Assembly: GCA_900548875.1 (NCBI GenBank)
Contig: URMA01000004.1
Location: 6,488-70,487, forward strand
Direction: 5' to 3'
DNA from: an uncultured Porphyromonadaceae bacterium
GTDB taxonomy: Bacteria; Bacteroidota; Bacteroidia; Bacteroidales; Muribaculaceae
Length of the DNA: 64,000 nt
Below are positions 2,592 through 56,855 of the stretch, piece by piece. Below the pieces are notes generated by a model. That model did not search any database, was not told the origin of the DNA, and was given only the letters and a program-made list of their open reading frames with translations. Made by a program: the position numbers and the translations under genes. Each line of letters opens with the position of its first letter. Positions within the stretch are counted from its first letter, which is position 1.

Positions 2592-3611
2592 ATGGAAAAC
2601 TTGAATTTCAATCAGGAAAGCGAACTGGTGATAAAGAAAAAAGAACGCTCGCTATTCGTTGCCATCGGTGTTGCTATCATCGTTGTTATCATTCTTGGCA
2701 TAATCGGCTTCATTGTCATCAAGCCTGCTCCGGAAATGGCACAGGGACAAGTGGAAGCTACATCCGTACGCGTTTCGGGACTTCTTCCGGGACGTGTTGA
2801 AAAGTTCTATGTAACGGAAGGACAGAGCGTCCACGCCGGCGACACACTTGCCAAAATCCACTCGGCAACCGTCGACGCCAAACTGGCTCAGGCCCTCGCC
2901 ATGCAGGATGCCGCCGACGCACAACGCCAAAAAGCCAATGCCGGCGCCCGCTCGCAAGTGCTGACTGCCGCCTACGACCTCTGGCAACAGGCCAAAGCGT
3001 CGCTCGACATTCACAAAAAGACATACGACCGACTTGAATCGCTCTACAAGCAGAATGTAGTTCCGGCACAGAAGCGCGACGAAGCCAAAGCCGCCTACGA
3101 TGCCGCCGTTGCGGCTGAAAGTGCCGCCCGCTCGCAGTATGAAATGGCAAAGGAAGGCGCACAGCGCGAAGACAAGATGGCCGCGGAAGCCATGGCCAAC
3201 GCAGCCAAAGGCACCGTGCAGGAAGTGGAATCCATTCTGAACGACCAGTACCTGCTGGCGCCATGCGACGGTGAAATTTCCGATATTTTCCCGAACGTAG
3301 GCGAGCTCGTGTCGACAGGTACTCCGATTATGAACGTGCTGAAGACCGACGACCAATGGATGGTGTTCAACGTGCGTGAAACCCGCCTTCAGGATCTGAA
3401 AATGGGAGCCAAGGTTTCCGTCAAGATTCCGGCACTGGGCATCGACAACGCACAGGCAGAAGTTTACTTCATCAAGGACAGAGGCGAATATGCCGTATGG
3501 CGTGCCACAAAAGTAACGGGCGAATTCGACAGCCGTACATTCGAAGTGCGTCTGCGCCCCGTCGAAAAGATCAAGGACCTGCGTCCGGGCATGAGTGTCA
3601 TTCTTGAGTAA
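2592..3611 (+). CDS. HlyD-family membrane fusion (periplasmic adaptor) protein
   Basis: It has a single N-terminal TM helix, an Ala/Gln-rich coiled-coil region and a C-terminal beta-barrel segment. It lies 44 nt after the TolC-like gene. Confidence 0.8.
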   Translation: MENLNFNQESELVIKKKERSLFVAIGVAIIVVIILGIIGFIVIKPAPEMAQGQVEATSVRVSGLLPGRVEKFYVTEGQSVHAGDTLAKIHSATVDAKLAQALAMQDAADAQRQKANAGARSQVLTAAYDLWQQAKASLDIHKKTYDRLESLYKQNVVPAQKRDEAKAAYDAAVAAESAARSQYEMAKEGAQREDKMAAEAMANAAKGTVQEVESILNDQYLLAPCDGEISDIFPNVGELVSTGTPIMNVLKTDDQWMVFNVRETRLQDLKMGAKVSVKIPALGIDNAQAEVYFIKDRGEYAVWRATKVTGEFDSRTFEVRLRPVEKIKDLRPGMSVILE

Positions 3612-3626
3612 ACGGTTGCGGAACCC

Positions 3627-4838
3627 ATGTTCCGCCTCCCTCTTTTCACCATTTTGTGTTTTTTGGAAATTATGTTTAAAACTGCATTTATAAATTCACT
3701 GAAACGCGGCGTGCGCAAGCTCACGGAACGGCGGCTATACATTTTCGCGATGGTAGTCATTCCCCTCTTCGTGACCTTCTTCCTGCTCGGACTGATGAAA
3801 AACGGCCTGCCGAACCACATCCCGACTGCCATTGTCGACCTCGACAATTCGACAGCTTCGCGCGAAGTGGTACGCACCCTCCACAGTTCGGTGGAAGTGG
3901 ACCTCAACCACAAGGTGAACAGCTATGTCGAAGCCTACGAACTGATGCAGAAAGGGGAAATCTACGGATTCTTCATCATTCCCCACAACTTCATGCGGGA
4001 TGCCATGTCGGGACGGGAACCACAGATTGCCTACTACACCAACAGCACGTTCTACGTTCCCGGCTCACTGCTCTACCGCAGTCTGCGCACCACCTCCACA
4101 CTTACTTCGGCTTCCATTGTCAAAGCCTATCTGGTAAGTTCGGGAGCTACCGAGAAGCAGGCGATGGACCTGCTGCAACCGGTTCAACTGCTGACAAATC
4201 CGGTGCACAACCCGTGGACGAACTACTCCATATATCTGGTCAATTCGTTTGCCCCCTGTGCACTGGCACTGATGATACTGCTCGTCACCATATTCAGTAT
4301 CTGCCACGAAGAAAAGATGGGCACCTCACGCGAATGGCTGAAAACGGCCGACGGCTCGATGTATGTGGCTCTGCTGGGCAAACTGCTGCCGCAGACGCTT
4401 ATTTTCGCCACCGTAGGATTTCTGATTCAGTCCATCCTCTACGGCTATTGCCATTACCCGCTCAACTGCAACCCGTGGAACATGATTGGCGCAATGATTC
4501 TGTTCGTGATGGCCACCCAGGCATTCGGAGTGATGATTGCCGGCGTCATGCCCAACCTTCGTTTGGGACTGAGCATCGCTTCGCTCATCGGCATCCTGTC
4601 GTTCTCCGTCGGTGCATTCTCGTTTCCGCTGGAAGACATGTACAGCCCGATTGCCATATTCGCCTACATTCTCCCGGTGCGCTACTACTTTTTGATTTAT
4701 GTGGACCAGGCTCTCAACGGATTCCCCATCTACTTCTCCCGCTTCTACTATGCCGCCCTGCTCGCATTCCTGCTGCTTCCGGCACTGGTGTTGAAACGCT
4801 TGAAGAAAGCCAACATGAATCCGGTCTATGTGCCTTAA
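3627..4838 (+). CDS. ABC-2 type transporter permease (YbhS/YhhJ-like); the start could instead be the internal Met at 3672
   Basis: A large N-terminal periplasmic domain is followed by a 6-TM ABC-2 permease core. The gene sits directly downstream of HlyD. Confidence 0.75.
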   Translation: MFRLPLFTILCFLEIMFKTAFINSLKRGVRKLTERRLYIFAMVVIPLFVTFFLLGLMKNGLPNHIPTAIVDLDNSTASREVVRTLHSSVEVDLNHKVNSYVEAYELMQKGEIYGFFIIPHNFMRDAMSGREPQIAYYTNSTFYVPGSLLYRSLRTTSTLTSASIVKAYLVSSGATEKQAMDLLQPVQLLTNPVHNPWTNYSIYLVNSFAPCALALMILLVTIFSICHEEKMGTSREWLKTADGSMYVALLGKLLPQTLIFATVGFLIQSILYGYCHYPLNCNPWNMIGAMILFVMATQAFGVMIAGVMPNLRLGLSIASLIGILSFSVGAFSFPLEDMYSPIAIFAYILPVRYYFLIYVDQALNGFPIYFSRFYYAALLAFLLLPALVLKRLKKANMNPVYVP

Positions 4839-4850
4839 TACCCCTATCGC

Positions 4851-6053
4851 ATGAAACGTCTGAAAAAATTCTATTTCGACATATACAGAGCATTCAAGAA
4901 CGAATTCAAGTTCGTTATCAAGGACAAGGGTCTGCTGATCTTCCTGTTCCTTGTGCCGCTGCTCTATCCGATTGTTTATGCGCTCATCTATAATCCGGAA
5001 CTGACGCGCGACGTGCCGGTAGCGATTGTCGACGACAGCCGTTCGGTGAAAAGCCGCGAACTGGCACGCAAAATCGACGCCTCGGAATCGGCCATGGTAG
5101 CCGGCTATGCCGCCGACATGGAAGAGGCAAAACGCTGGATAGCCGAAAAACGGTGCTACGGAATTGTGCACATTGACCGCGATTTCGACCGCAACATCGT
5201 CCGAGGCGAACAGGGCACCGTGAGCCTCTACTGCGACATGTCGCTGCTCATCCGCTACAAGTCGCTGCTCGTAGCCCTGACCGAATCGACCATGGACCTT
5301 GGCTCGGATATCCGCATTGAAAAGATGTACAGTCTCGGAGCCGACGCGCCGAAAGTGCCGCCGACAGTATCCAGCACCTATTTTGCTTTGGGTAATCCCG
5401 AACAAGGCTTCGCCACCTTCCTGCTTCCGGCCATCCTTATCCTCATCGTGCAGCAGACCATCATTCTTTCCGTCTGCATGATGGGCGGCGCCATCTACGA
5501 ACGCCGTCGCCGCTACGGAGACGTGGACCCCTACGACACTCGGAATTCAGGAGCCGTCAGCCGTATGCTCGGAAAGGCAATGGCTTTCATCATCCTCTAT
5601 CTCGGCCAACTGGTTTATCTGCTCTATTTCGTACCGAAATTCTTCAGCTATCCGCAGTATGCCAACCTGTTTGAGGTGGTTCTCCTCTGCGTGCCCTATC
5701 TGTTTGCCGCCGTATTCTTCGGAATGACATTGCAGGTCATCGTACGCGAACGCGAGACGTCGTTTGTGCTGATAGTCGTAACTTCGGTCATCTTCCTGTT
5801 CCTTTCAGGCATTCCCTGGCCGCTCTACGACATGAGTCCCCTCTACCGCTTTGTCAGCGCATGCTGCCCGTCAACCTGGGCCATGCAGGCATTTGTACGC
5901 ATGAACGCCAACGGAGCTTCGCTCGGCGATGTCAACCACGAATACATGATGCTGTGGCTGAACGCCATCGGCTACTTCTTCATCGCCCTGTTTATCAACA
6001 AGGCTTCAGTGGGACACCACGTCCGCCAATATTCGCCGGAAAAAGCGCAATAG
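4851..6053 (+). CDS. ABC-2 type transporter permease (second paralog)
   Basis: It has the same architecture as the preceding gene and is the last gene of the operon. An intrinsic terminator follows. Confidence 0.75.
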   Translation: MKRLKKFYFDIYRAFKNEFKFVIKDKGLLIFLFLVPLLYPIVYALIYNPELTRDVPVAIVDDSRSVKSRELARKIDASESAMVAGYAADMEEAKRWIAEKRCYGIVHIDRDFDRNIVRGEQGTVSLYCDMSLLIRYKSLLVALTESTMDLGSDIRIEKMYSLGADAPKVPPTVSSTYFALGNPEQGFATFLLPAILILIVQQTIILSVCMMGGAIYERRRRYGDVDPYDTRNSGAVSRMLGKAMAFIILYLGQLVYLLYFVPKFFSYPQYANLFEVVLLCVPYLFAAVFFGMTLQVIVRERETSFVLIVVTSVIFLFLSGIPWPLYDMSPLYRFVSACCPSTWAMQAFVRMNANGASLGDVNHEYMMLWLNAIGYFFIALFINKASVGHHVRQYSPEKAQ

Positions 6054-11500: not shown

Positions 11501-11544
11501 AGTTAAAAAGCCATCGACCGCATATCGCAAACAGAAAAACTGCA

Positions 11545-11665
11545 TTTTTCATTTGTCTTTTCTCTCAACTTGCACCATCTTTTCATAAGATAGGCGGCGT
11601 TTCGGAAATACAAAATTGAATAAATTCATTTTGTATTTCTCTCAACTTGCACTATCTTTGTACCC
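11545..11665 (+). promoter_or_regulatory. Tandemly duplicated promoter cassette upstream of the nif3-like gene (downstream copy -7 TATCTTTG at 11653-11660)
   Basis: There are two copies of ..tctctcaacttgcacYatcttt.. The upstream copy reads tcttttc (degenerate -7). The downstream copy is an exact TAnnTTTG 19 nt before the ATG. Confidence 0.5.
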
Positions 11666-21791: not shown

Positions 21792-21984
21792 TACAGTGTC
21801 CTTGTTTTAAAAAGACAAGAAGGAATAAATTCCTTTGAATTTCACACACATTAGTTGCGCGCCCTCCTCCGAGCATAGCCTTCAGAGAAAAGCACTGTTT
21901 GTACAGCCGGCAATCCGGAATTTGTTAGAATGCCGCCGCCGTTTTTCAGATAATGCCTCGACTGAACAAAAGGAAATCCGACAA

Positions 21985-22170
21985 TGTCACCTTTCCTTTT
22001 CTCTCAACTTGCACCATCTTTGTAGAAGATAGGATACGCCTTGGCATAAAACTCAAACAAGTTTGGTTTTCTGCACTCGGCTTTCACTATCTTTTAATAA
22101 CATAGGCTGCGTTTCGGAAAAGAAAATTGAGCAAGCTCTTTCCTTTTCCCTCAACTTGCACTATCTTTGC
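21985..22170 (+). promoter_or_regulatory. Promoter region with three repeats of the promoter cassette (-7-like motifs). The downstream exact TATCTTTG is at 22162-22169.
   Basis: The motifs are ..ctcaacttgcaccatctttgtag.., ..ctttcactatcttttaat.. and ..ctcaacttgcactatctttgcaa... The aaacaagtttggttttctgca block is also seen at 46.99 kb. Confidence 0.45.
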
Positions 22171-37239: not shown

Positions 37240-37960
37240 TATCTTTGCCAGAAAGAACAAAAAAACGGATAAGAGCATCCTCAAATTTATGTCTTTATGT
37301 TCTTCTGTCGGAGAAATTTATTTTTGACAAAAGAACACAAGAACAGAAATCATATTTTTATAGACACCTGACACACAACACCTTCAACATTATAAAAATT
37401 TTGTCCTTTTGTTCTTCTGTCCCCAAAAACTCTCCCACCAGCACAGAAGAACACTCTAACGCATTTTATTTTTGACAGAAGAACAGAAAGACATATTTTG
37501 AAAGCGCTGCCAAGTGGCGTCCTCCACTTAGAAAGAGGAGGTGGGCGGAGCCCGGAGGAGTATGAACGCCAACATTGGGTTGGAGATTAGCGTTTGTAAA
37601 CTGTAAATCCTTGGAAAATGTTCATGCTCCCCAGTCTGTGTTCATTCCCCTCAGTCGCAAGCGACGGCTCCCCTATCTTAGGTGAGCACAGGCTAACGCG
37701 TTGATTATCTTATATTTGATTTTTCGACAGAAGAACACAAGAACAGAAATCATATTTTTATAAGAGCTTGACACATAGCACTTTCAGCATCATAAAAATT
37801 TTGTCCTTTTGTTCTTCTGTCAAAAAAACTCCCCCATCAACGACCTGAAAACTGCGTTTTCGTTTGCCTCTCCGCTCTGCTTTTCGTATCTTTGGATAAG
37901 ATTGGAGGCGGCTCGGGATAAAAAATATCTGAAACAAGTTTCAATATTTTATTCTCCGCT
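37240..37960. repeat. Cluster of MITE-like modules (GACAGAAGAACA family) immediately 3' of tRNA-Pro. It includes a duplicated ~110 bp unit (37.32-37.43 and 37.72-37.83 kb) and a ~200 bp GC-richer module (37.49-37.70 kb).
   Basis: Repeated blocks are tttttgacaaaagaacacaagaacagaaatcatatttttata...ttttgtccttttgttcttctgtc. The module gaaagcgctgccaagtggcgtcctcc...ttaggtgagcacaggctaacgcg has an inverted partial copy at 42.38-42.47 kb. Confidence 0.6.
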
Positions 37961-42289: not shown

Positions 42290-42620
42290 TTCTGACAATA
42301 TATCAAATAGGAAGGTTTACAGTTTGTGGTTTACAGAGCTCCGCAAACCGCTGTTGGCGTTCATGACAGAATTTGTTTTCGACATAAGAACACAAGGACA
42401 TAAGATAATCACCCGCGTTAGCCTGTGCTCACCTTAGCGGAGGACGCCACTTGACAGCGCCTTCAAAATTATGTCTTTCTGTTCTTCTGTCGGAAATCTT
42501 TTTGACATAAGAACACAAGGACACAATTCCCCTTGTTTGTCGAGAACAATCCCCCGACTACTCTCACCCATAACCCCTAATCTATAACCCCAATATGTTC
42601 TTCTGTCAGGAGCAACGCTC
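42290..42620. repeat. Second cluster of GACAGAAGAACA-family modules, in inverted orientation relative to the 37.5-37.8 kb cluster
   Basis: The reverse complement of 42.37-42.47 kb matches gacagaagaacagaaagacata.ttttgaa.gcgctg.caagtggcgtcctcc...taaggtgagcacaggctaacgcg at 37.47-37.70 kb. The match has module insertion/deletion differences. There is also a ..ataacccctaatctataacccc.. block, as at 11.45 kb. Confidence 0.6.
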
Positions 42621-42727: not shown

Positions 42728-44803
42728 TTAAAAGAAAGTCAATGAATTGTTTTCAATATCCTTGTTTTCTTTCAAGATATCCAAAGCCATCTGTGAAACC
42801 GCACGTGCGCCGATGATCGAAGAATAGCGGTCGGCCAATTGTTGCGGAGTGAGGCTTGAACTTGACTTCTCGATTTTTTTCACTTCATACACGAACACAC
42901 CCTGCTCGCCTTTCACCGGACCGTTGAGCGAACCCTGCTTAGCATAAGGAGCCTGACCGGTAAGGCATTTTTCCATCGCGCGGAGCGGCATGATGAAATC
43001 CTGAGAGAAGGTAACGACTACAGCTGTGTCGACCGGCACATTCACTGCGGCAGCATAGCCCTGAAGACCCTTGCCCTTGCCGGCATTGAACTTAGCCACC
43101 AATGCTTCAGCCTTCTTGTCGTTGCGAACGCGAGTTTCTACAATCGTGCGGACACTTGCATCACTCAGCGGCATATAGCCTGCCGGAATAACTTCGTCAA
43201 GAGTAAGGGCAATCATCTTGTCGTTGCCTTCCTTGTCGAATACCGGAGAAACCGAACCAGCTTCTGCACCAAACGCCCATTGAATCATCTTACGAGTTGA
43301 CTCGATGCGGTTGATTTGCGGGTCGTTGGCCGTGATAGTAGCTTCGAGCGGCTGATAGCCTGCTGCGACAGCGTTTTCTATAAATGACTTGTTTACGTTG
43401 TTCTTGTTAACATATTCCTGCAATCCGGCGCGAAGATTGTCGACAGTCTTGTCGCTCGGATAAACATGGTAGGTAACCTCGGCAATGTCGTACATCTGCT
43501 TCGGCGCAGCTTTTTTCACTACTTTATAGATCAGTGCACCGTATTCGTTGCTGTCGAGCACGAAATAGTCGGCACCGGCTTCCATCAATTTCTTCTTGGC
43601 AGTTTCAGCCTGCTCAGTGTTGCCCATCTGCAAGGTGTTGAGGGCGAAGTTTTCCTGACCGGCAACCGTCTTACCGTTGACTACTTCAGCGAATGCCTTG
43701 CCGGAATTCAACAGGTTGAGCACAGAATCCTGCGATGCCTTGTTGCCCTGAACCTGAACCATGTTGACTGTAATCGTATCAACATCCATCTTCTTGCCCA
43801 AAAGTTTAGTGACGCTGTGAACATCGGCACGGAAAGCCGGAGTAGAAACAGCACCGACAGCAGCTTCAGCAAGGAAGTTCTTGGTTGCTACGTCGACATC
43901 GTTGGCGCGCACCGTACGTTCGGCAATAGAAACTTCCGAAATGTTGCGGATGGCGTTTACACCTTCATTGGCTTTCAGTTTTGCAACCACTGTGTCCATC
44001 AAAGCCTGTGCAGCAGCCAAATCGGCAGCCGACGGAGCAATATTAACAGCAATGTAGTGGATTTTGCGAAGTTCTTCTTCCGTCTTAAACTGATATTTGT
44101 CTTCATTGTAACGGGCCTTCAGATCTTCTTCGCTGACAGGATAGTCCTTGTTGTCGAGAGAAGTGTAAGGAACGTTTACGAGGTCGATAGTCGAAGCTGT
44201 CGACATTTCAGCGGCAAGCGCTTCCTTGTCGAGGTCGTTAGCCTGGATGGCACCTGCGAGCAGCGTACCGAATTTCTGATATTTCAACTGTTGGTCGATA
44301 TTGCGTTCCATTTCCAACCACTGTGCCTTCAGCGGCTCAACATCCTGCGGATTCAAGCCATATTTGCCGGGGTTGAAAAGCATATCGTGAAGCATTGCAG
44401 GAGAATCGGCTCCCATCTGTGCAGCAAACTGGGCTACTGCCGGAATAGCGTTTGCACCTGTCATAGCTTCTGTAAGCTCTTTGTTGGTAACTTGAATACC
44501 CAACGCTTCCACTTCATCGTTCAACAGTTGCTCGTTGATCATTTCGTTGAGCACCTGCATTTGGACTACTGCACCGTCGAATTTCTGGTTTGACTGCTGC
44601 AAACGCTGGTTATACTCTTCATTGCGACGTTGGAAATCGACGATACTGATTTTCGTACCGTCAACGTTCGCTACGGTAGTGCCGCTACCAAAGAATGAGC
44701 GGCCGGAGTTCAAGAAGTCACCGATGATAAATGCCAAAAGGGCTACACCGATAACTACGAGTAACAATACGGATTTACTCCTGATTTTCTCTAATGTTGC
44801 CAT
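42728..44803 (-). CDS. Peptidyl-prolyl cis-trans isomerase, PpiD/SurA-like periplasmic chaperone
   Basis: A short N-terminal tail and TM anchor precede a SurA-N-like domain and a parvulin-type PPIase region. Length is 691 aa, typical of Bacteroidales PpiD-like proteins. Confidence 0.7.
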   Translation of the reverse strand: MATLEKIRSKSVLLLVVIGVALLAFIIGDFLNSGRSFFGSGTTVANVDGTKISIVDFQRRNEEYNQRLQQSNQKFDGAVVQMQVLNEMINEQLLNDEVEALGIQVTNKELTEAMTGANAIPAVAQFAAQMGADSPAMLHDMLFNPGKYGLNPQDVEPLKAQWLEMERNIDQQLKYQKFGTLLAGAIQANDLDKEALAAEMSTASTIDLVNVPYTSLDNKDYPVSEEDLKARYNEDKYQFKTEEELRKIHYIAVNIAPSAADLAAAQALMDTVVAKLKANEGVNAIRNISEVSIAERTVRANDVDVATKNFLAEAAVGAVSTPAFRADVHSVTKLLGKKMDVDTITVNMVQVQGNKASQDSVLNLLNSGKAFAEVVNGKTVAGQENFALNTLQMGNTEQAETAKKKLMEAGADYFVLDSNEYGALIYKVVKKAAPKQMYDIAEVTYHVYPSDKTVDNLRAGLQEYVNKNNVNKSFIENAVAAGYQPLEATITANDPQINRIESTRKMIQWAFGAEAGSVSPVFDKEGNDKMIALTLDEVIPAGYMPLSDASVRTIVETRVRNDKKAEALVAKFNAGKGKGLQGYAAAVNVPVDTAVVVTFSQDFIMPLRAMEKCLTGQAPYAKQGSLNGPVKGEQGVFVYEVKKIEKSSSSLTPQQLADRYSSIIGARAVSQMALDILKENKDIENNSLTFF

Positions 44804-45099
44804 TTATTTTTGTAGTTTTTAATTTTTTACGCATTAAAATAATTGCAGAAGCAACACGAAAACTCATATATATACTTCTACAAAGTAGCACGCAAAGATA
44901 CCAAAATTCATTAATAATACAAAAACTATTCTTTTTTTTCGCTTTTTATTTGAAAAACAACGGGTTTTAGGGGCATTTTAGCGACAATTTTCTGCTATAA
45001 AACATAATATTGCGAACAATGGCCGGACGTCGCTTGTTGTATAGGCGAACATGGCTGCAAAGACTGAATCCCGGCGGAGGTGCGGAAAACCGGCAATTT

Positions 45100-45240
45100 G
45101 AAAAACTGCGTTTTTCACTTGTCTATTCTCTCGGCTTGCACTATCTTTTCATAAGACAGGCTGCGCCTCGGATTAGACAAATTTGAAAAACTGTGTTTTT
45201 CACTTGTCTATTCTCTCGGCTTGCACTATCTTTGCAGGCG
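45100..45240 (+). promoter_or_regulatory. Tandemly duplicated promoter cassette upstream of metK (downstream copy -7 TATCTTTG at 45227-45234)
   Basis: There are two ~70 bp copies of gaaaaactgYgtttttcacttgtctattctctcggcttgcactatcttt... The first ends tcttttc and the second ends tctttgc (exact TAnnTTTG). The distance to the metK ATG is ~130 nt. Confidence 0.5.
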
Positions 45241-45366
45241 GAAATTAAGTATTAACCCTGTGGAAAAATTTGGCTGCTTGCAACCACATTAAAAAATGCT
45301 AAAACTGCAAATCCCCCTCAGATTTCCAGCCAATTTAGCTTTTCCACTTTAAAACAAAATGGAAAG

Positions 45367-46656
45367 ATGAACTATCTATTCACATCGGAATCGGTGTCGG
45401 AAGGACACCCTGACAAAGTGGCGGATCAAATTTCTGACGCCATTCTTGACAAACTGCTTGCTTATGACCCGGAATCGAAGGTTGCGTGCGAAACGCTCGT
45501 GACTACGGGACAGGTTGTAATTGCCGGCGAAGTGAAATCGGAAGCCTACATCGACATGATGGACACGGCCCGCAGCGTAATCAACCGTATCGGCTACAAC
45601 AAGAGCGAATACAAATTCGACGGCGAATCGTGCGGCGTTCTGCTGGCTATCCACGAACAGTCGAAGGACATCAACCGGGGCGTTGACCGTGGAAACAGGG
45701 AAGACCAAGGAGCCGGCGACCAAGGCATGATGTTCGGTTATGCCTGCAACGAAACGGAAAACTACATGCCGCTGACGCTCGACCTGGCTCATGCCATCCT
45801 CCGCGAACTTGCCGCTATCCGCCGCGAAGGCAAGGTGATGACCTATCTGCGCCCTGACTCAAAAAGTCAGGTGACGGTGGAATACGACGAGCACAACAAG
45901 CCGGTGCGTGTTCACACCATCGTTGTCAGCACACAGCACGACGACTTTATCCAACCGGCCGACAACTCTGACGCCGCTCAGGCGGAAGCCGACCGACAAA
46001 TGGTGGACGTCATCTACAACGACGTCAAGAACATCCTGCTGCCGCGCATCATCCGGACATTGCCCAAACGCATACAGAACATGTTCGACGACCAACTGAT
46101 TCTTCACGTGAATCCTACTGGAAAATTCGTTATCGGCGGACCGAACGGCGACACGGGCCTTACCGGACGTAAAATCATCGTTGATACTTACGGAGGCCGC
46201 GGTGCTCACGGCGGCGGTGCCTTCTCGGGAAAAGACCCTTCGAAGGTGGACCGCTCGGCAGCCTACGCCACCCGACATATTGCGAAAAACATCGTTGCAG
46301 CCGGTCTGGCCGACGAAGCTCTCGTGCAGGTGGCCTACGCCATCGGTGTTGCCCAACCGGTCAGCCTGTGCGTAAACACCTACGGAACAGCGAAAGTCAA
46401 CCTGTCGGATGCAGAAATTTCCGCCCGTATCAGCCAACTGTTCGACATGCGTCCGGCAGCTATCGAGGAACGCCTCGGACTGCGCCAGCCTATCTACGAA
46501 GAAACGGCCGCCTACGGACACATGGGACGCAAGCCGGAAGTGATCGACAAGCACTTCAAGTCGTTCTACAACGGCGACAAGGTTGTCAGAGTAGAACTTT
46601 TCAGCTGGGAAAAGCTCGACTATGTCGACAAAATCCGCAAAGCATTCGGACTGTAA
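45367..46656 (+). CDS. metK: S-adenosylmethionine synthetase
   Basis: The N-terminus is ..[24 protein letters not shown]... The GAGDQG motif and the ..[22 protein letters not shown].. signature are present. Length is 429 aa. Confidence 0.95.
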
Positions 46657-46675
46657 TCAACACAACCACCATACG

Positions 46676-46717
46676 AAAAACTCCCGGACAACCATCGTAT
46701 TGCCCGGGAGTTTTTGT
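46676..46717 (+). terminator. Rho-independent terminator after metK
   Basis: A hairpin (ctcccgg ... ccgggag) is followed by TTTTTG. Confidence 0.65.
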
Positions 46718-46735
46718 ATACCCCTAACGCCCATG

Positions 46736-46946
46736 TACGAATAAGCATAAAAATTTAGCTTATTCGTACACTTGATTATAATCTATTGTTTTCCAATTAA
46801 TTAAACCTGTAAAATAATTTCAAAACACGGTCAAAAGCACTATCTCTCCCGCTTATTTCACACTAAAAACGACCATTTCAGCCCTAAAATGACAAAATAA
46901 GCATATTTAAATATGCTTATCTTTACAAATATTGTTATTTTAAATA
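46736..46946. repeat. Direct repeat DR-1 (~210 bp) flanking the AAA/DUF4143 ATPase gene
   Basis: It is ~90% identical to 48516-48726. It begins with the palindrome gtacgaataagc-ataaaaattta-gcttattcgtac and ends with the perfect 24 bp palindrome ataagcatatttaaatatgcttat. Confidence 0.7.
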
Positions 46947-47056
46947 TTATTTCGTATATTTGCAGAACACAGGAGACGCCTCTGCAGAAAACTTAAACAA
47001 GTTTGGTTTTCTGCATCCGGCTTTCGCCATATTTGCAACAACAAAATCACATTCAC

Positions 47057-48517
47057 ATGAAGCAACCCAACGAACTGATTAAGGAACAGGTAATAAAACG
47101 AATGTCGTTCGATAATCCCTGGTGGATTTCCGTCTCCATTTCCAACGACTATAAAGCCATGCAACCACGAGCCTATCTTCCCGATTTCTACGACATGGTT
47201 GCCAACATGTCCATCCGTCGTGCAACAATACTGATGGGGCCGCGGCGTGTGGGAAAAACCGTCATGATTTTTCACACTATTGACCGCCTTATCAAAAGCG
47301 GAATCAATCCACAGAAAATCATCTATATATCCATCGATACACCCATATACAACAATATCTCGCTGGAAGAACTATTTCATTATGCACGCCAAGCATTGAA
47401 ACAGGAGGATTGCTTAGAAGGTTTTTACGTGTTTTTTGATGAAATCCAATATTTAAAAGATTGGGAAATTCACTTAAAATCACTGGTTGACAGCTATCGC
47501 TCCGTGAAATTTGTGGCTTCAGGTTCAGCGGCTGCTGCGCTGAAAATGAAAAGCAACGAAAGCGGAGCCGGACGTTTTTCCGACTTCACCCTCCCCCCTC
47601 TTACTTTTTTCGAATATCTCAAACTCATAGGACAAGGTTCCATCATTGTCAAAAACAACAGTAAAACAATACCGGTTGACACTATCGACATCACGCGCCT
47701 CAACCAGCTTTTCATCGATTACATAAACTACGGTGGCTATCCGGAAGTAGTGGTTTCGGACGAAATACGTGCCAACCCCGGACAATACATCCGCCACGAC
47801 ATTATTGACAAAGTGCTGTTGCGCGACCTGCCCAGCCTTTATGGAATCAAGGACATCCAAGAATTGAACAAACTGTTTGTCCACATAGCTTTTCTTTCCG
47901 GGAATGAATTTTCGTATGAAAGTTTGTCACAAGAAGCCGGAATCAAGAAGGAGACACTCAAAAAGTATCTCGAATATCTCGAAGCCGCCTTCCTCATCAA
48001 AGTTGTCAATCGTATTGACCAAAATGCCAAACGCATGCAACGGGTTACGTCCTTCAAAATATACCTGACCAACCCGTCGCTCCGCTGTGCCTTGTTTACG
48101 CCTATTTCCGACAACGACGAATGCATTGGGAACATGGTCGAAACTGCCATCTTTTCGCAATGGGTACAAGGCGGGAAAAGCGATTTCTATTATGCCAATT
48201 GGGCCAAAGGAAGAGAAAAAGGTGAAGTTGACCTCGTATGGACCGATCCTGCCACCCAAAAGGCTTTTTCGTTAGCGGAAATCAAATGGACTGACCGATT
48301 TGCGGAAACTCCAAGCGAACTGAAATCGCTCTATCATTTTTTAGGAAGCAATCCCGATGTACGAAAAATAATTGTAACATCAAAAACCATCAGCAGAGTG
48401 TATAACAGTTCTAAAGGACAAATTCTGTTTGTTCCTGCAGCACTTTACGCTTATTGGATTTCAGCTTATCTATATAACTCACAGAAAAAGATACATGAAA
48501 AGGATAATGCAATGTAA
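47057..48517 (+). CDS. AAA+ ATPase with C-terminal DUF4143 domain (COG1373-type ATP-binding protein)
   Basis: Walker A is GPRRVGKT and Walker B is ..VFFDEIQY... The C-terminal region matches the DUF4143 pattern. The start was chosen at MKQPNELI. The ORF track begins at 47003. Confidence 0.75.
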   Translation: MKQPNELIKEQVIKRMSFDNPWWISVSISNDYKAMQPRAYLPDFYDMVANMSIRRATILMGPRRVGKTVMIFHTIDRLIKSGINPQKIIYISIDTPIYNNISLEELFHYARQALKQEDCLEGFYVFFDEIQYLKDWEIHLKSLVDSYRSVKFVASGSAAAALKMKSNESGAGRFSDFTLPPLTFFEYLKLIGQGSIIVKNNSKTIPVDTIDITRLNQLFIDYINYGGYPEVVVSDEIRANPGQYIRHDIIDKVLLRDLPSLYGIKDIQELNKLFVHIAFLSGNEFSYESLSQEAGIKKETLKKYLEYLEAAFLIKVVNRIDQNAKRMQRVTSFKIYLTNPSLRCALFTPISDNDECIGNMVETAIFSQWVQGGKSDFYYANWAKGREKGEVDLVWTDPATQKAFSLAEIKWTDRFAETPSELKSLYHFLGSNPDVRKIIVTSKTISRVYNSSKGQILFVPAALYAYWISAYLYNSQKKIHEKDNAM

Positions 48518-48726
48518 AAATAAGCATAAAAATTTCGCTTATTCGTGCATTTGATTATAATATACTATTTTTCAATTAGTTACATATGCAAAATAATTTC
48601 AAAACACGGTCAAAAGCACTATCTCTCCCGCTTATTTTACACTAAAAACGACCATTTCAGCACTAAAATGATAGAATAAGCCTATTTAAACATGCTTATT
48701 TTTACAAATATTGTTATTTTAAACAT
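48516..48726. repeat. Direct repeat DR-2 (~210 bp), copy of DR-1, immediately after the ATPase stop
   Basis: See DR-1. The terminal palindrome is slightly degraded here (ataagcctatttaaacatgcttat). Confidence 0.7.
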
Positions 48727-48746
48727 ATACAAACATACTTAATACA

Positions 48747-48776
48747 GAAAAGCCAAGATCGGAATCTTGGCTTTTT
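48747..48776. terminator. Bidirectional intrinsic terminator
   Basis: The palindrome aaaagccaagat-cgga-atcttggctttt serves the ATPase gene (+) and the convergent 48803-50209 gene (-). Confidence 0.65.
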
Positions 48777-48802
48777 CTATATTGGCACTCTAACTACTGC
48801 AT

Positions 48803-50209
48803 CTACGCCGTCTGCACGATGCGCAGGTGGGCTTTCGGGTAGCGGAGGGTCATGCAGCTGGCTTCGGTCAGCACAATGGCGTCGGTATTACGCACGCCGG
48901 CCGACTTCAGGTTGAGCTCCTCGGTCGAGAACGGAATATGGCTGTATTTCTGCAAATATTCCGGGTCGATAATCATACCGTTGTTTTCCATTCCGCATTC
49001 GTCGAACACCTCCGACAACAGTACATAGAGCTTGCCGAACTTCGAACGGATTTCCGAGAAGTCGATACCCCATTTCACGATATCCTCACCGGCCATCACC
49101 ACTTTCGTGGAGTCCAGTTTGTTGAGCTGTTCAATCAGCCCCGAACCGCCGATGAGCACCTTACGCTTGTTGCCGGCATTGCCCGTGAACGCCTGCCGCA
49201 TCATGGAAATGACGGCATCCTGATTCAATTCACCCGACTTGTAGGTAAATTCGCCGCCGGCCTGTCCCCAGATTCCGCCCGTCAGGAATATTTCCTCATG
49301 CTTGGTCTGATCCTCCACACGGCCCTTGACACCGAAAAGGAAGTTTTTCTCCATGCCCAGACGCATGTCGTAGACCGCCGCTTCCTCCTGGTCGCTGAAC
49401 GTCCACCCCACTTCCTTGTTGGCGATTTTTTGCAGGGTGCTCTGTTCGATCTGCATCTTGAAAATCTGGCAATAGTTCTGGCACTTTACCGGCAACGCTT
49501 CGAACTGCGCCGTCTGCACATCCAATTCTCCGGCGGCACGCCCCATTCTCACGAGCATCGTTCCCGTCGGTATGGTCGGAATACAGTTGGTGAATCCGTC
49601 GGCAGTCTTGCCGTTGGGAGTGACGGCCTCCAAATAGTTTTCACTGGTGGATTTCGACACGACGTACAGCACCAAATCCTGCGATGACTGCGTCACACCG
49701 TCGGGCTCAAAGCCGCGCACGCCACGCACCAACAGCGTTTCCGACTCTTCAAACAAGTCGATATTGTCCACCGTCAGGCGTGCCCGCTGGAAACGCTTGT
49801 CGCCCGTCGTGTCGACACCCGTAAATTCGGAAGTGGTGAGTGCCGATGTCGGACGGGTATCCACCGAATAATAGTCGACCACCATGCTTCCGCTGCGTTT
49901 CGCACCCGCCCAACGCGACAACTGGTCGATAGGCGTAGCCATCGGACGAATCTTGACGATACGGCGGTCGATTTCGTTCAGCAGCAGTTCGGGCGATTCA
50001 CGCTGCGCAAGGGCACGCGTCAGGGGTTCATCCGTCACATGCTTTCCTCCGGCCACACCCGGAATGACAGCCATCGCAAGCGACAGGCCCGAAGAATCGT
50101 AGAACACAAGCACGCCCACCGCCAACAGCACCAGCAGAAACAATAGTGTTTCGGGGCAGAGCAGACGGTCCATCAGTTGTTGAAATTTTTCTTTCGTTGT
50201 GTTTTTCAT
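48803..50209 (-). CDS. Hypothetical membrane-anchored protein (N-terminal cytoplasmic tail + 1 TM + large periplasmic domain)
   Basis: This is an ORF-only call. It is the last gene of a co-directional cluster with the TPR protein and OMP upstream. Confidence 0.45.
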   Translation of the reverse strand: MKNTTKEKFQQLMDRLLCPETLLFLLVLLAVGVLVFYDSSGLSLAMAVIPGVAGGKHVTDEPLTRALAQRESPELLLNEIDRRIVKIRPMATPIDQLSRWAGAKRSGSMVVDYYSVDTRPTSALTTSEFTGVDTTGDKRFQRARLTVDNIDLFEESETLLVRGVRGFEPDGVTQSSQDLVLYVVSKSTSENYLEAVTPNGKTADGFTNCIPTIPTGTMLVRMGRAAGELDVQTAQFEALPVKCQNYCQIFKMQIEQSTLQKIANKEVGWTFSDQEEAAVYDMRLGMEKNFLFGVKGRVEDQTKHEEIFLTGGIWGQAGGEFTYKSGELNQDAVISMMRQAFTGNAGNKRKVLIGGSGLIEQLNKLDSTKVVMAGEDIVKWGIDFSEIRSKFGKLYVLLSEVFDECGMENNGMIIDPEYLQKYSHIPFSTEELNLKSAGVRNTDAIVLTEASCMTLRYPKAHLRIVQTA

Positions 50210-50260
50210 AGCAATAAATAATTTAAGTTAATCAGACGGTTATTTTTCGTTTCACAAAGC

Positions 50261-50608
50261 CTAATCCCACACGCTCCGACGAATATGGCGGAGCAACGGC
50301 AAGTCGGGGTCCTCTTCTATCCCGCCGTCGTCGCAGGGATTTACGGTGTCGAACGAGCGACGGCGCACTTCAATCTGTTCGTTCCTGCCTTCCACATAGC
50401 CCTCCTGACGCGCCTGTGCTACATCGGCTTCATGGCGCAGCCCACGGTAGACCAGTTCGAGCAGACTGTCCGTGACTTCCGGCACACCGCCCACCGCCTC
50501 CACCATACTGTCGAGCACATCCTCCGCTTCCGCATGACGCTCGGCAAGAAACTGCAGCACACGGTCGTCGACGGCCGGCTGCGTTTTTTCCATTTTCTGT
50601 TCTTCCAT
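50261..50608 (-). CDS. Small acidic hypothetical protein
   Basis: The ORF encodes 115 aa and is co-directional between the OMP and the membrane-anchored protein. About 25% of residues are Asp/Glu. The call is uncertain. Confidence 0.3.
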   Translation of the reverse strand: MEEQKMEKTQPAVDDRVLQFLAERHAEAEDVLDSMVEAVGGVPEVTDSLLELVYRGLRHEADVAQARQEGYVEGRNEQIEVRRRSFDTVNPCDDGGIEEDPDLPLLRHIRRSVWD

Positions 50609-50755
50609 ACGTTTTCAGTTTTAAGGTTCAACACTGCAAAGCTACAATGCCCTGCCCCACTGATATCGCAAAAAAGAGCAAACCGCCGGACAAAAAAATC
50701 GGCAGAGCGTTTCCGCCCTGCCGACTTCCAGCCGCCAAACAGCGACCCTTTATCC

Positions 50756-52588
50756 TTAGAAATTCACAGCTGCCCCTACAAGGAAATTGAAGCGCTGCGC
50801 ATACATACCGTAATACAGTTGCTGACGACGGTTCAACAGGTTGTTCAGGCGGCAATAGGCCGAGAACATATCCGTAAACCGGTAAGAAGCACCGAAACCG
50901 AGATCGGAGAAGGTACCCAAATCAATTGTCGTTTCCGACATCATGGCTGCCGGCTCTTCCGAACCTATCATCGGATAGTAGTGCGTATTCAAAACGCGGC
51001 GTCCGCCCATAAAGCGGTAGTCGACATAAAGGTCAAGCTGACGGATTGGCGTTACCTTCAACTTGGCATCCACCACATGCTCCGGACGGTTATCGGCAAG
51101 CTGATAGCCCGACTTCGTGCCTTGAGGAGCAAACGTATAGGCAGCCTTGAATTCCACCTTGTCGGAATAGTTGTAGGCCGTTTTCAATCCCATTTTAGCC
51201 CCGCTCATATTAACTGCCTGATAGGTAGTGGCAGCTGTCGGTTCGGGGAAATTCTTATTGTTGTCGACAGATGTAAAGGCAGTCACCAACGCATCTCTGA
51301 CAACCGCAAAACCGACAAACGGCGTAATGGTAAATCCTTTGAACAGTCCGAAATTCAATCCGGCTTCCGCATCGACCAGCGTGTAGCTTGTCGGAAGCAT
51401 CAGCGACGGGTTCACATAACGGTTGCGCGCTGCCACGTTGTGGAACGTATGAATCTCGTTACCGCCCACTGCCGAAGCATACAGGCTGAACATGCGGCTC
51501 ATTTCCCAGTCGAAACGCACGTCGGGAGCGATACGGAAGAAGGTACCGTTGTCAAACGAAAGGTCGACATGCGCGCCGATACGCAGGTTCATGTTGTCGG
51601 TACGATGGCTGTAGTACGGAGTGACACTCAGCATGCCGAAGCTCTTGCCGCCGGCATCGTTCAGCACCATTTCGTGGTAGACCGAAGGCTGGTCGTCGCG
51701 GAACACCACATCCAGCGCCTCCGTATTGCGATAGCCCAACATCTGGAAACCCAAGTCGACACCCGCGAAATCAGCATCGCCCAACAGGAATTCGGCACCG
51801 CCGTCAAGATTCAGCAGGTTCTCCGTAAGTCCGTTGCCCAGCACTCCGTTTTCGTCCGTAGCGTTCCAGAAGCCGTACTTGTTGCCAAAATAGTTGTATT
51901 CGGCACCGATATAATAACTTACCTGATTGTCGTTCACGCTTTTTCCACGCCACATGGCGTTTACGTTAAACTCATTGACCACCTGACGGGTATTGCCCGG
52001 AGTTCTCAATCCTGCCCCATAGTAGTTGAAACGGTCGAAATGATAGGAAGTTCCTGCCGTCAGCCCCCCCTTGCTGAACATGTTGCTGAAATCCAGTCCC
52101 ACGCGGTCCTCTATCACATACTGGCGGGAATACTTGTACGCCTCATTGATGTTTTTATAGAGTCCGTCGGTAAGGCCGCTCGTCGAATTGTGCTGCAACC
52201 ATACGCCCAACTGCGTCTTGTCCGTCTTAACAATACGGTAACCGGCATTGCCGACAATGTTCAGATAGTTGCCCATTCCGAACGTAGCATAGCCGCGCTT
52301 GTCAAGGTATCTGAATTTTTCGGCGAAATCGTCCACGGTCTGTGTCACCACAAAAGGATCCACCTTGGCCGGAATCGCCCAGTCGCTGTAGTTCAGCGAA
52401 ATTTTCGTCTGCTTTTCTTCGAGCGTGGCCGGGTTTGTGCCCAGACGTGTCGACTTCAGCAGTTCGGGCTGATAGTCAGTTTCCACCACGATTGCCTTAT
52501 GCAATTCCTCGTCGCCCGACTGTGCCATGGCCGGGAAAAGCACTCCCGACAATGCCAATGACATATATACTATTAACGTTTTCTTCAT
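50756..52588 (-). CDS. Putative outer-membrane beta-barrel protein (porin-like, Bacteroidetes-specific family)
   Basis: A signal peptide (MKKTLIVYMSLALSGVLFPAMA) is present. The pattern is amphipathic beta strands rich in Tyr/Gly/Asn. The C-terminal residue is Phe (..GAAVNF). Length is 610 aa. Confidence 0.6.
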   Translation of the reverse strand: MKKTLIVYMSLALSGVLFPAMAQSGDEELHKAIVVETDYQPELLKSTRLGTNPATLEEKQTKISLNYSDWAIPAKVDPFVVTQTVDDFAEKFRYLDKRGYATFGMGNYLNIVGNAGYRIVKTDKTQLGVWLQHNSTSGLTDGLYKNINEAYKYSRQYVIEDRVGLDFSNMFSKGGLTAGTSYHFDRFNYYGAGLRTPGNTRQVVNEFNVNAMWRGKSVNDNQVSYYIGAEYNYFGNKYGFWNATDENGVLGNGLTENLLNLDGGAEFLLGDADFAGVDLGFQMLGYRNTEALDVVFRDDQPSVYHEMVLNDAGGKSFGMLSVTPYYSHRTDNMNLRIGAHVDLSFDNGTFFRIAPDVRFDWEMSRMFSLYASAVGGNEIHTFHNVAARNRYVNPSLMLPTSYTLVDAEAGLNFGLFKGFTITPFVGFAVVRDALVTAFTSVDNNKNFPEPTAATTYQAVNMSGAKMGLKTAYNYSDKVEFKAAYTFAPQGTKSGYQLADNRPEHVVDAKLKVTPIRQLDLYVDYRFMGGRRVLNTHYYPMIGSEEPAAMMSETTIDLGTFSDLGFGASYRFTDMFSAYCRLNNLLNRRQQLYYGMYAQRFNFLVGAAVNF

Positions 52589-56739: not shown

Positions 56740-56820
56740 TATATTATGACAGAAGAACAAAAGAACAGATCTTAAAATTGATAGGCGGGAAAAATTTTGT
56801 TCTTCTGTTCTTCTGTCTAT
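56740..56820. repeat. Short GACAGAAGAACA-family MITE-like element
   Basis: The sequence is gacagaagaacaaaagaacag...ttttgttcttctgttcttctgtc, with inverted ends ~75 bp apart. Confidence 0.5.
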
Positions 56821-56855
56821 ATTAACCTTTCACTATCTTTACCAAAAAAATCAGA

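Follow-up and report, generated by a model that had tools for sequence, protein, structure and literature searches.

A strain-variable PDC-S01 ATPase-nuclease gene with operator-like palindromes and flanking direct repeats in a gut Muribaculaceae species

The locus and its features

A 64,000-nucleotide stretch of contig URMA01000004.1 (assembly GCA_900548875.1), from an uncultured Muribaculaceae bacterium and referred to here as the window, contains a gene for an ATPase-nuclease of the PDC-S01 family, which is the sole gene between two direct repeats, DR1 and DR2. These repeats are 215 nt each, are 89.8% identical (blastn, E 3e-82) and lie 1779 nt apart, and no further copies of the unit occur in the 64 kb. 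The order along the locus is the metK terminator, DR1, the ATPase gene, DR2, a bidirectional terminator, and a convergent gene for an SU10_MCP-like (capsid-like) protein. An earlier note on this DNA had reported both the repeats around the gene and the position of the whole between the two terminators. Both observations were borne out. The palindromes P1 and P2 and their DR2 counterparts could be located, and the two terminators fold strongly (z -5.6 to -6.7). Palindromes of the kind found in the repeats are associated with this gene family-wide, and occupied, solo-repeat and empty alleles of the locus exist within one gut species. The features are as follows.

46676 to 46715, forward strand: metK intrinsic terminator (inverted repeat I6; RNA fold -22.9 kcal/mol, z -6.65)
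46720 to 48803, forward strand: whole accessory segment, 2,084 nt, from blastn of the window against the empty alleles L195 and L198
46733 to 46947, forward strand: DR1, putative native upstream control region, with P1, a lone half-site, P2 and the -33 region
46735 to 46769: P1, distal operator-like palindrome GTACGAATAAGC-N11-GCTTATTCGTAC, perfect 12-nt arms
46851 to 46862: lone fifth half-site GCTTATTTCACA (reverse complement TGTGAAATAAGC), read from the sequence and fitting the half-site consensus
46897 to 46920: P2, proximal operator-like palindrome ATAAGCATATTT/AAATATGCTTAT, a perfect 24-mer
46955 to 46962, forward strand: native Bacteroidetes-type -7 box TATATTTG, read from the sequence, immediately outside DR1
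about 46964 to 47038, forward strand: dispersed "promoter module" of ~75 nt, 82% identical to window positions 22016 to 22094 (family D9)
47057 to 48517, forward strand: ATPase-nuclease gene, 486 aa (Pfam, PADLOC PDC-S01, AF2 model, Foldseek)
48512 to 48726, forward strand: DR2, putative downstream control-region copy, from the last codon on
48514 to 48548, 48630 to 48641 and 48676 to 48699: P1', half-site and P2' of DR2
48720 to 48741: decayed relic of a third palindrome, from alignment with L202
about 48747 to 48777: bidirectional terminator within the accessory segment; both strands fold (z -5.6 and -6.0)

The boundaries of the repeats differ somewhat from those first proposed. DR2 does not begin just after the stop codon but 3 nt before it, so that the repeat takes in the final codon (ATG) and the TAA stop (48515 to 48517). 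Each repeat does start with a palindrome, as the earlier note had it, but does not end at the 24-nt palindrome P2, past which homology extends for 27 nt. A stretch in the repeat that had been taken for a degenerate promoter module (46838 to 46858) is better read as the fifth operator half-site, GCTTATTT(C/T)ACA; in the DR1 of other strains the same stretch is AACACTACCCATTCC, which is unlike the promoter module. The pattern AATAAGC-N12-GCTTAT has six matches in the window, every one within the repeats, against 0.09 expected. The bidirectional terminator serves both the ATPase gene and the convergent capsid-like gene, and it is missing in the empty alleles, where the metK terminator is the only one separating metK from the capsid-like gene. 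An Rfam scan of 44500 to 51000 gave nothing credible in the repeats, and its sole above-threshold match was a riboswitch upstream of metK. A sigma-70 promoter and terminator scan was uninformative, the genome being that of a Bacteroidetes organism.

The ATPase-nuclease and its family

The 486-residue protein matches PF13173 AAA_14 (E 2e-31) and PF13635 DUF4143 (E 5e-25) in Pfam, in agreement with the initial description of the gene as an ATPase with a DUF4143 domain. Its domain order is AAA_14, a predicted winged helix (about residues 267-337), and a DUF4143 PD-(D/E)XK nuclease domain. The PADLOC model PDLC04787 for PDC-S01 covers residues 51-446 (E 1e-57), and six more PDC-S01 models match. 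Conserved across the homologues are Walker A (G61-K67), Walker B (D128-E129), E362, D392, and E408-x-K410. By its hidden Markov model match, and by this domain order with its catalytic residues, the gene is a member of PADLOC PDC-S01/COG1373. DUF4143 has been classed as a PD-(D/E)XK nuclease fold (PMC3424549), and PDC-S01 has been reported to rank fourth in frequency among prokaryotic "defence" types (PMC12988326) and to be the most frequent single locus in rumen genomes, while in the literature it stands as an unvalidated single-gene phage-defence candidate. The earlier statement that AAA/DUF4143 genes are of unknown function therefore holds only in part, as the family is partly characterised by its place among the PADLOC phage-defence candidates and by its nuclease fold. 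A role of the ATPase-nuclease in phage defence is accordingly treated here as a candidate role.

An AlphaFold2 (AF2) model was built from a shallow alignment and has a mean predicted local distance difference test score (pLDDT) of 63. At about residues 267-337 it contains a helix-helix-helix-strand-strand unit. The best Foldseek match is 2qby_A, Orc1/Cdc6 on origin DNA (E 2e-6), with others to the origin recognition complex (ORC) and RuvB. A helix-turn-helix (HTH) profile, ArnR, gives a weak match to residues 276-326 (E 0.005), and a sequence search of the PDB found no relative. The resemblance of this PDC-S01 protein to winged-helix, Orc1-like proteins may be taken as a lead only.

Palindromes as putative operators

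Homologous loci were gathered from public assemblies, and palindromes were surveyed over 40 homologue clusters; loci of capsid-like relatives from other genera served as control DNA. In the flanks of the homologues there are 32 instances of the strict palindrome TAAGC-N8-14-GCTTA, spread over 21 of the 40 clusters, compared with 2 occurrences in 926 kb of Bacteroidales DNA among the controls and none either in the distal 146 kb of the homologue loci or in the remainder of the window. The general form of the palindrome, TGTAAAAATAAGC-N11/12-GCTTATTTTTACA, is found upstream of homologues down to 49% identity. The half-site consensus, wTGTmAAAwTAAGC, is nearly invariant, whereas the spacer varies freely in sequence; its length is 12 nt in 24/32 palindromes and 11 nt in 7/32. 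A near-invariant half-site together with a set spacer length of free sequence is the signature of a dimer operator.

The positions of the palindromes are likewise fixed with respect to the ATG of the homologues, the proximal one at -63 to -95 and the distal one at -243 to -333. In the window they lie at -159 and -315, distances that are larger because an inserted promoter module of ~75 nt separates the native -7 box from the ATG; after subtraction of this 75-nt module, P2 corresponds to the -63 to -95 palindrome of the homologues. The module is flanked on both sides by ATATTTGC, adds a second -7-like box (CATATTTG) at 47028 to 47035, and is missing at this site in L006 and L200. The consensus of the Bacteroidetes -7 box is TAnnTTTG. 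The native -7 box follows ~35 nt after P2, and L006, L140, and L119 share both the box and its distance from P2. P1 and P2 are spaced 156-157 nt apart both in the window and in homologues of 58-60% identity that have no downstream copy. A homologue on an Acinetobacter plasmid (49% identity) has CACCAAATAAGATCAG-TGTG-CTGATCTTATTTGGTG, a CCAAATAAG palindrome placed upstream as in the other homologues, ~50-85 nt before its ATG, which indicates that the site travels with the gene across phyla. As RNA, the palindromes form weak folds (-6 to -13 kcal/mol) and have no U-tract, so they are unlikely to be terminators.

Half-site, spacing, and promoter-relative position are thus fixed and are co-inherited with the gene, as in an operator, and DR1 can be read as the native upstream control region of this gene family. 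Since the ATPase is the only gene common to the palindrome-bearing loci, we infer that its own product binds the palindromes, most simply in autoregulation. Among the three options that the earlier note had offered for the repeats, a regulator-bound operator pair is the best supported, with palindromes at fixed upstream positions in many lineages and even in another phylum.

Occupied, solo-repeat and empty alleles

Alleles at the metK site were surveyed among contigs encoding a capsid-like protein identical to that of the window. The occupied allele is present in seven distinct contigs (L193, L194, L196, L197, L199, L200, and L201). Two contigs, L195 and L198, are fully empty, with a spacer of 82 nt and no palindrome. 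In blastn of the window against these two, homology ends at 46716-46719 and resumes at 48804, the flanks are 97-99% identical, and ~20 nt of unrelated filler take the place of the accessory segment. L202 carries a single repeat within a spacer of 368 nt, where 369 nt are predicted from a crossover between DR1 and DR2, and this repeat is chimeric, its left flank being of the DR1 type and its right flank of the DR2 type. The search for strains with an empty site or a single repeat, which the earlier note had proposed, was thus successful on both counts. Exact searches with metK, and with the 115-aa neighbour of the capsid-like gene, returned only occupied alleles. The capsid-like relatives in other genera are uninformative for the empty site, as 79/80 of their loci (all but the species representative L019) lack metK adjacency.

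Other variation was seen in the repeats. Between the repeat and the terminator of L202 (3830-3870, minus strand as fetched) lies an intact third palindrome, TTAAGCATATAAAAATATGCTTAA, whose counterpart in the window carries four changes; the intact copy implies that the ancestral downstream region had at least three operator-like sites. L104 is missing the first 119 nt of DR1, and P1 with them, and L200 combines a DR1 of the type of a sister lineage with a DR2 of the window type. The guanine-plus-cytosine (GC) content is 35-45% in the accessory segment and 43-45% in the ATPase gene, versus 54-58% in the neighbouring genes.

The indel reaches from 13 nt left of DR1 to 77 nt right of DR2, with the terminator included, and there is no target-site duplication. 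An indel wider than the repeats and lacking a target duplication argues that DR1 and DR2 are not insertion ends. The earlier idea of a repeat-bounded cassette is accordingly upheld as regards accessory presence and absence, but not as regards the repeats as insertion boundaries, with the indel at 46720 to 48803 reaching beyond both. A transposon, insertion sequence, or miniature inverted-repeat transposable element (MITE) was rejected for the segment on the mismatch between repeat ends and indel boundaries, the lack of a target duplication, and the ~20-nt filler in the empty allele. No evidence was found for a satellite-like or self-transposing element, another of the options first raised.

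A related proposal is that the repeats themselves are two non-autonomous, MITE-like mobile elements of ~194 bp, bounded by terminal inverted repeats of 15 nt (TGTAAAAATAAGCAT), which landed by chance on both sides of the gene. The ends are indeed complementary (15/15 for I7 in DR2 and 81% for I13 in DR1), and other dispersed repeats abound in the intergenic regions of the genome. However, these "terminal inverted repeats" are the outer arms of two operator palindromes that occupy the same positions in homologues, homology continues for 27 nt past the right "end" with no target duplication, and the palindrome is essentially confined to the neighbourhood of the PDC-S01 gene family. There are also only two copies in the window, both at the ATPase gene, and the 24-mer repeat core has no exact match in 185,579 species-representative genomes. 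Such a double landing is highly improbable.

Age of the arrangement, gene conversion and origin of DR2

A sister lineage (L006 and L019), in which the ATPase is 91-92% and metK 94% identical to those of the window, has the same layout, and its DR2 is shortened by a clean ~123-nt deletion with loss of P2'. The shared layout indicates that the duplication is old, and a recent capture of the gene is not supported. The copies within one genome are more alike than are orthologous copies between the window and sister lineages. Moreover, strains with 96-98% identity in the flanks carry mosaic repeats, in which variants of DR1 stand in DR2 and vice versa, with exchanged blocks running both ways in seven strains. 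Such exchange is gene conversion. The chimeric single repeat of L202 and the mosaics identify two processes at the locus, direct-repeat deletion and concerted evolution by homologous recombination.

DR2 is most likely the remnant of an old "one-and-a-bit" tandem duplication. In L119 the upstream repeat also covers the terminal 39 nt of the coding sequence, a pattern that duplication of a whole unit would produce. A one-off duplication followed by gene conversion can account for the window locus.

Recurrence of flanking repeats in the family

Flanking direct repeats recur in 9 of ~34 evaluable homologue lineages, against 0 of 315 control genes. The nine are the window, L006, L007, L119, L129, L133, L139, L176, and L177. 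The left edge of the repeat falls within about 40 nt of the stop codon in six of them (the window, L006, L119, L133, L139, and L177) and the right edge is variable; in L007, L129, and L176 the downstream copy begins 112-377 nt after the stop. The palindrome right after the stop is intact in relatives of 71-77% identity, although other repeat sequence has decayed. In L129, a control-region copy (corresponding to -181 to -19) lies at 3685-3807, downstream of a 60%-identity ATPase gene and before an AAA_21 (AbiEii/OLD-like) gene at 4023-5375, and the operator module may there have been recruited to a second defence-type gene. In L140, a member of the ~59%-identity group, a distant DUF4143 paralogue (1395-2636, ~25% identity) stands in tandem directly upstream of a homologue bearing P1 and P2 (2986-4440), an arrangement seen in one species.

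The retained post-stop palindrome bears on the possibility that the downstream copy is functional, with operators on both sides of the gene bound by one oligomeric AAA+ protein. Looping out of the 1.8-kb gene, or a block of transcription from the convergent neighbour, would then silence a toxic nuclease, and selection would uphold the similarity of the repeats together with gene conversion. A palindrome is kept 4-26 nt after the stop in the window, L006, L007, L013, L105, L133, L139, L171, and L177, in varied contexts, and in P. plebeius it has perfect 13-nt arms despite a decayed repeat. Upstream and in DR2 alike, the 156-bp spacing approaches an integral number of helical turns, and the palindromes, poor terminators as RNA, are followed by a separate canonical terminator. 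On the other hand, many homologues have no downstream palindrome, among them the ~59%-identity group and the Acinetobacter plasmid copy. The sister lineage lacks 123 nt of DR2 including P2', and L104 has a DR1 without P1, losses which indicate that the full set of sites is dispensable. A functional DR2 is therefore possible, though rather unlikely.

The recurrence of the repeats bears equally on self-mobilisation. According to this proposal, the repeats are functional ends, similar to long terminal repeats (LTR) or attachment (att) sites; the ATPase-nuclease cuts the flanking palindromes, a circle is excised and re-inserted, and the repeats arise at integration, for example through an over-length rolling-circle or concatemer copy. 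The flanking repeats are specific to the family, with a left edge that lies near the post-stop palindrome in six of the nine lineages and a variable right edge, the homologues are found at unrelated sites, in many cases between convergent genes, a nuclease motif is conserved in the protein, and the solo-repeat allele is the expected excision product. However, the indel exceeds the repeats on both sides and lacks a target duplication, and the empty sites have no palindrome and thus no att-like target. DR1 is a control region that is also present in homologues without a downstream copy, the window holds one unit, whose 24-mer core is unmatched among the species genomes searched, and RecA-type recombination is enough to yield the solo repeat and the mosaics. 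We know of no strand-transfer activity for a PD-(D/E)XK nuclease alone, and the position of the gene beside two tyrosine integrases in one lineage suggests cargo. Self-mobilisation is therefore considered improbable. A bolder form of the idea, that PDC-S01 proteins are sequence-specific, Orc1/Cdc6-like binders whose own action at the palindromes (cleavage or replication restart, giving over-length copies) makes the flanking repeats, is doubtful to a slightly greater degree. If true, self-made repeats would be an unrecognised route by which one defence-type gene brings about its own duplication, excision, or movement.

Several further observations concern homologous loci and the mobility of the unit. 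In L191, an IMG/VR contig classed as viral, two tandem tyrosine integrase genes (193-2831) directly precede a 67%-identity ATPase homologue (3366-4835); in this lineage an integrative element probably carries the gene as cargo. P. plebeius has the unit between a peptidase gene and ispG, where a sister species has a 70-nt terminator spacer with no palindrome. Also in P. plebeius (L013, 4591-4709), four 22-nt units (GGAAAACGCAAGTACGTTTTG) form nested inverted and direct repeats in the interval that separates the peptidase gene from the control region of the ATPase gene. The Logan contig L004 (1,791 nt), which ends in both repeats, was rejected as a circle and is attributed to a de Bruijn graph break in a 48-nt identical stretch. 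An identical protein (P0005) found in three contexts was rejected as a sign of mobility, since the contexts diverge from a point within a tRNA gene or at the end of a contig.

Proposed model

Taken together, we consider it fairly probable that the locus is an accessory, autoregulated, defence-candidate module with recombinogenic repeats. The segment 46720 to 48803, with its one gene, is an accessory module set between the convergent core genes metK and the conserved capsid-like gene. P1 and P2, 156 bp (~15 helical turns) apart, would act with the fifth half-site as operators just upstream of a Bacteroidetes -33/-7 promoter, where the protein, as a dimer or higher oligomer, may bind through its winged helix and in this way regulate its own, probably costly, expression. 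DR2 would be a second copy of the control region fused to the end of the coding sequence. With copies 1.8 kb apart and in direct orientation, host homologous recombination is expected to act on DR1 and DR2. Short-tract gene conversion in both directions may hold them at ~87-92% similarity, as mosaics, while an occasional crossover between them would delete the gene and leave one chimeric repeat. The module with its terminator would be gained and lost through recombination in the conserved flanking genes, without transposition, which best explains its presence and absence.

Some of the evidence weighs against this model. The defence role has a database classification as its sole basis. The structural model is mediocre (mean pLDDT 63), its winged-helix region has a pLDDT below 50, and the template modelling (TM) score to Orc1/Cdc6 is 0.27-0.33. 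The ~20 nt of the empty allele are absent from the occupied one, so that the original event may have run in either direction. No tandem pair of close paralogues was seen in 80 loci. Finally, a simple duplication remnant does not account for the recurrence of the repeats in 9 of ~34 lineages or for the kept post-stop palindrome, both of which hint at a function of the downstream copy or at a family-specific process.

Comparison with known systems

The window gene shares the AAA_14 plus DUF4143 architecture of the PDC-S01 family. It is a standalone gene of low GC content that varies among strains and stands in variable contexts, as expected for a defence-type gene, but it sits between housekeeping genes with no recognisable defence island. 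No cis element, operator, or flanking repeat was described for the family in the literature searched.

The C proteins and C-boxes of restriction-modification systems, and the autoregulatory operators of toxin-antitoxin systems, also place palindromes of fixed spacing by the promoter of a potentially toxic nuclease that travels between hosts. In those systems the regulatory logic is to delay or limit expression after transfer, and the same logic is presumed here. In contrast to C proteins, which are small separate HTH regulators, the presumed regulator here is a domain of a large ATPase-nuclease, and the locus has two operators 156 bp apart, an extra half-site, and a duplication of the operator region downstream. 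Archaeal Orc1/Cdc6 proteins similarly have an AAA+ domain followed by a winged helix and have inverted-repeat boxes in AT-rich DNA beside their own gene, but the structural match is weak, and the present protein has an extra nuclease domain and no sign of origin activity. The Acinetobacter plasmid that carries a homologue has a separate replicon type assigned. Integron cassettes resemble the locus in having a single gene with an imperfect palindrome right after the stop, a related palindrome upstream, and strain-variable presence; unlike them, the locus has its own -33/-7 promoter, no GTTRRRY core, and no array. An integron gene cassette was rejected on this promoter region and on indel boundaries that lie off the palindromes; no search for an integron integrase was made.

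Neighbouring genes and other repeats

The promoter module upstream of the ATPase gene, at 46956-47038 when taken as a member of its family, belongs to a set of dispersed intergenic elements of ~75-85 nt that end in a Bacteroidetes -7-like box (GCACTATCTTTG/CATATTTG). Related copies in the window lie at 22016-22094, 11527-11606, 21966-22118, and 45093-45257, and the family has the look of promoter modules that move or duplicate. The metK riboswitch, of the SAM-II (long-loop) type and located at 45254-45312 on the forward strand (score 63 bits; gathering threshold 44), is preceded by two of these elements in tandem. A second family of dispersed repeats, TTTTGACAGAAGAACA.. with the complement ..TGTTCTTCTGTC, is clustered in the intergenic regions 37274-37850, 42377-42533, and 56744-56850.

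The SU10_MCP-like gene (48803-50209, reverse strand), which has the phage major capsid fold, forms a conserved chromosomal cluster with the gene for the 115-aa protein (50261-50608, reverse strand), beyond which lie tetratricopeptide repeat (TPR) genes of 602 aa and 994 aa. Eighty species, from Muribaculaceae, Barnesiellaceae, and related Bacteroidales, have relatives of the capsid-like protein at 54-79% identity. The neighbourhood shows no further evident phage genes, and the protein may be a domesticated capsid or an encapsulin-like compartment.

Implications

The gene family itself was already known; its cis architecture (operators, repeat flanks, and natural occupied, solo-repeat, and empty alleles) was, as far as found, undescribed in the literature searched. 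PDC-S01 is reported to be among the most abundant candidate defence types of prokaryotes, and the locus offers a directly testable handle on its control and on the DNA that it recognises, namely a palindrome of 13-nt half-sites, with two operators 156 bp apart, that accompanies the gene from one phylum to another. Within one gut species, moreover, the locus cleanly exemplifies the occupied, solo-repeat, and empty states in nature. Its flanking repeats make the gene easily lost by recombination, which bears on the turnover of costly defence genes in gut Bacteroidales.

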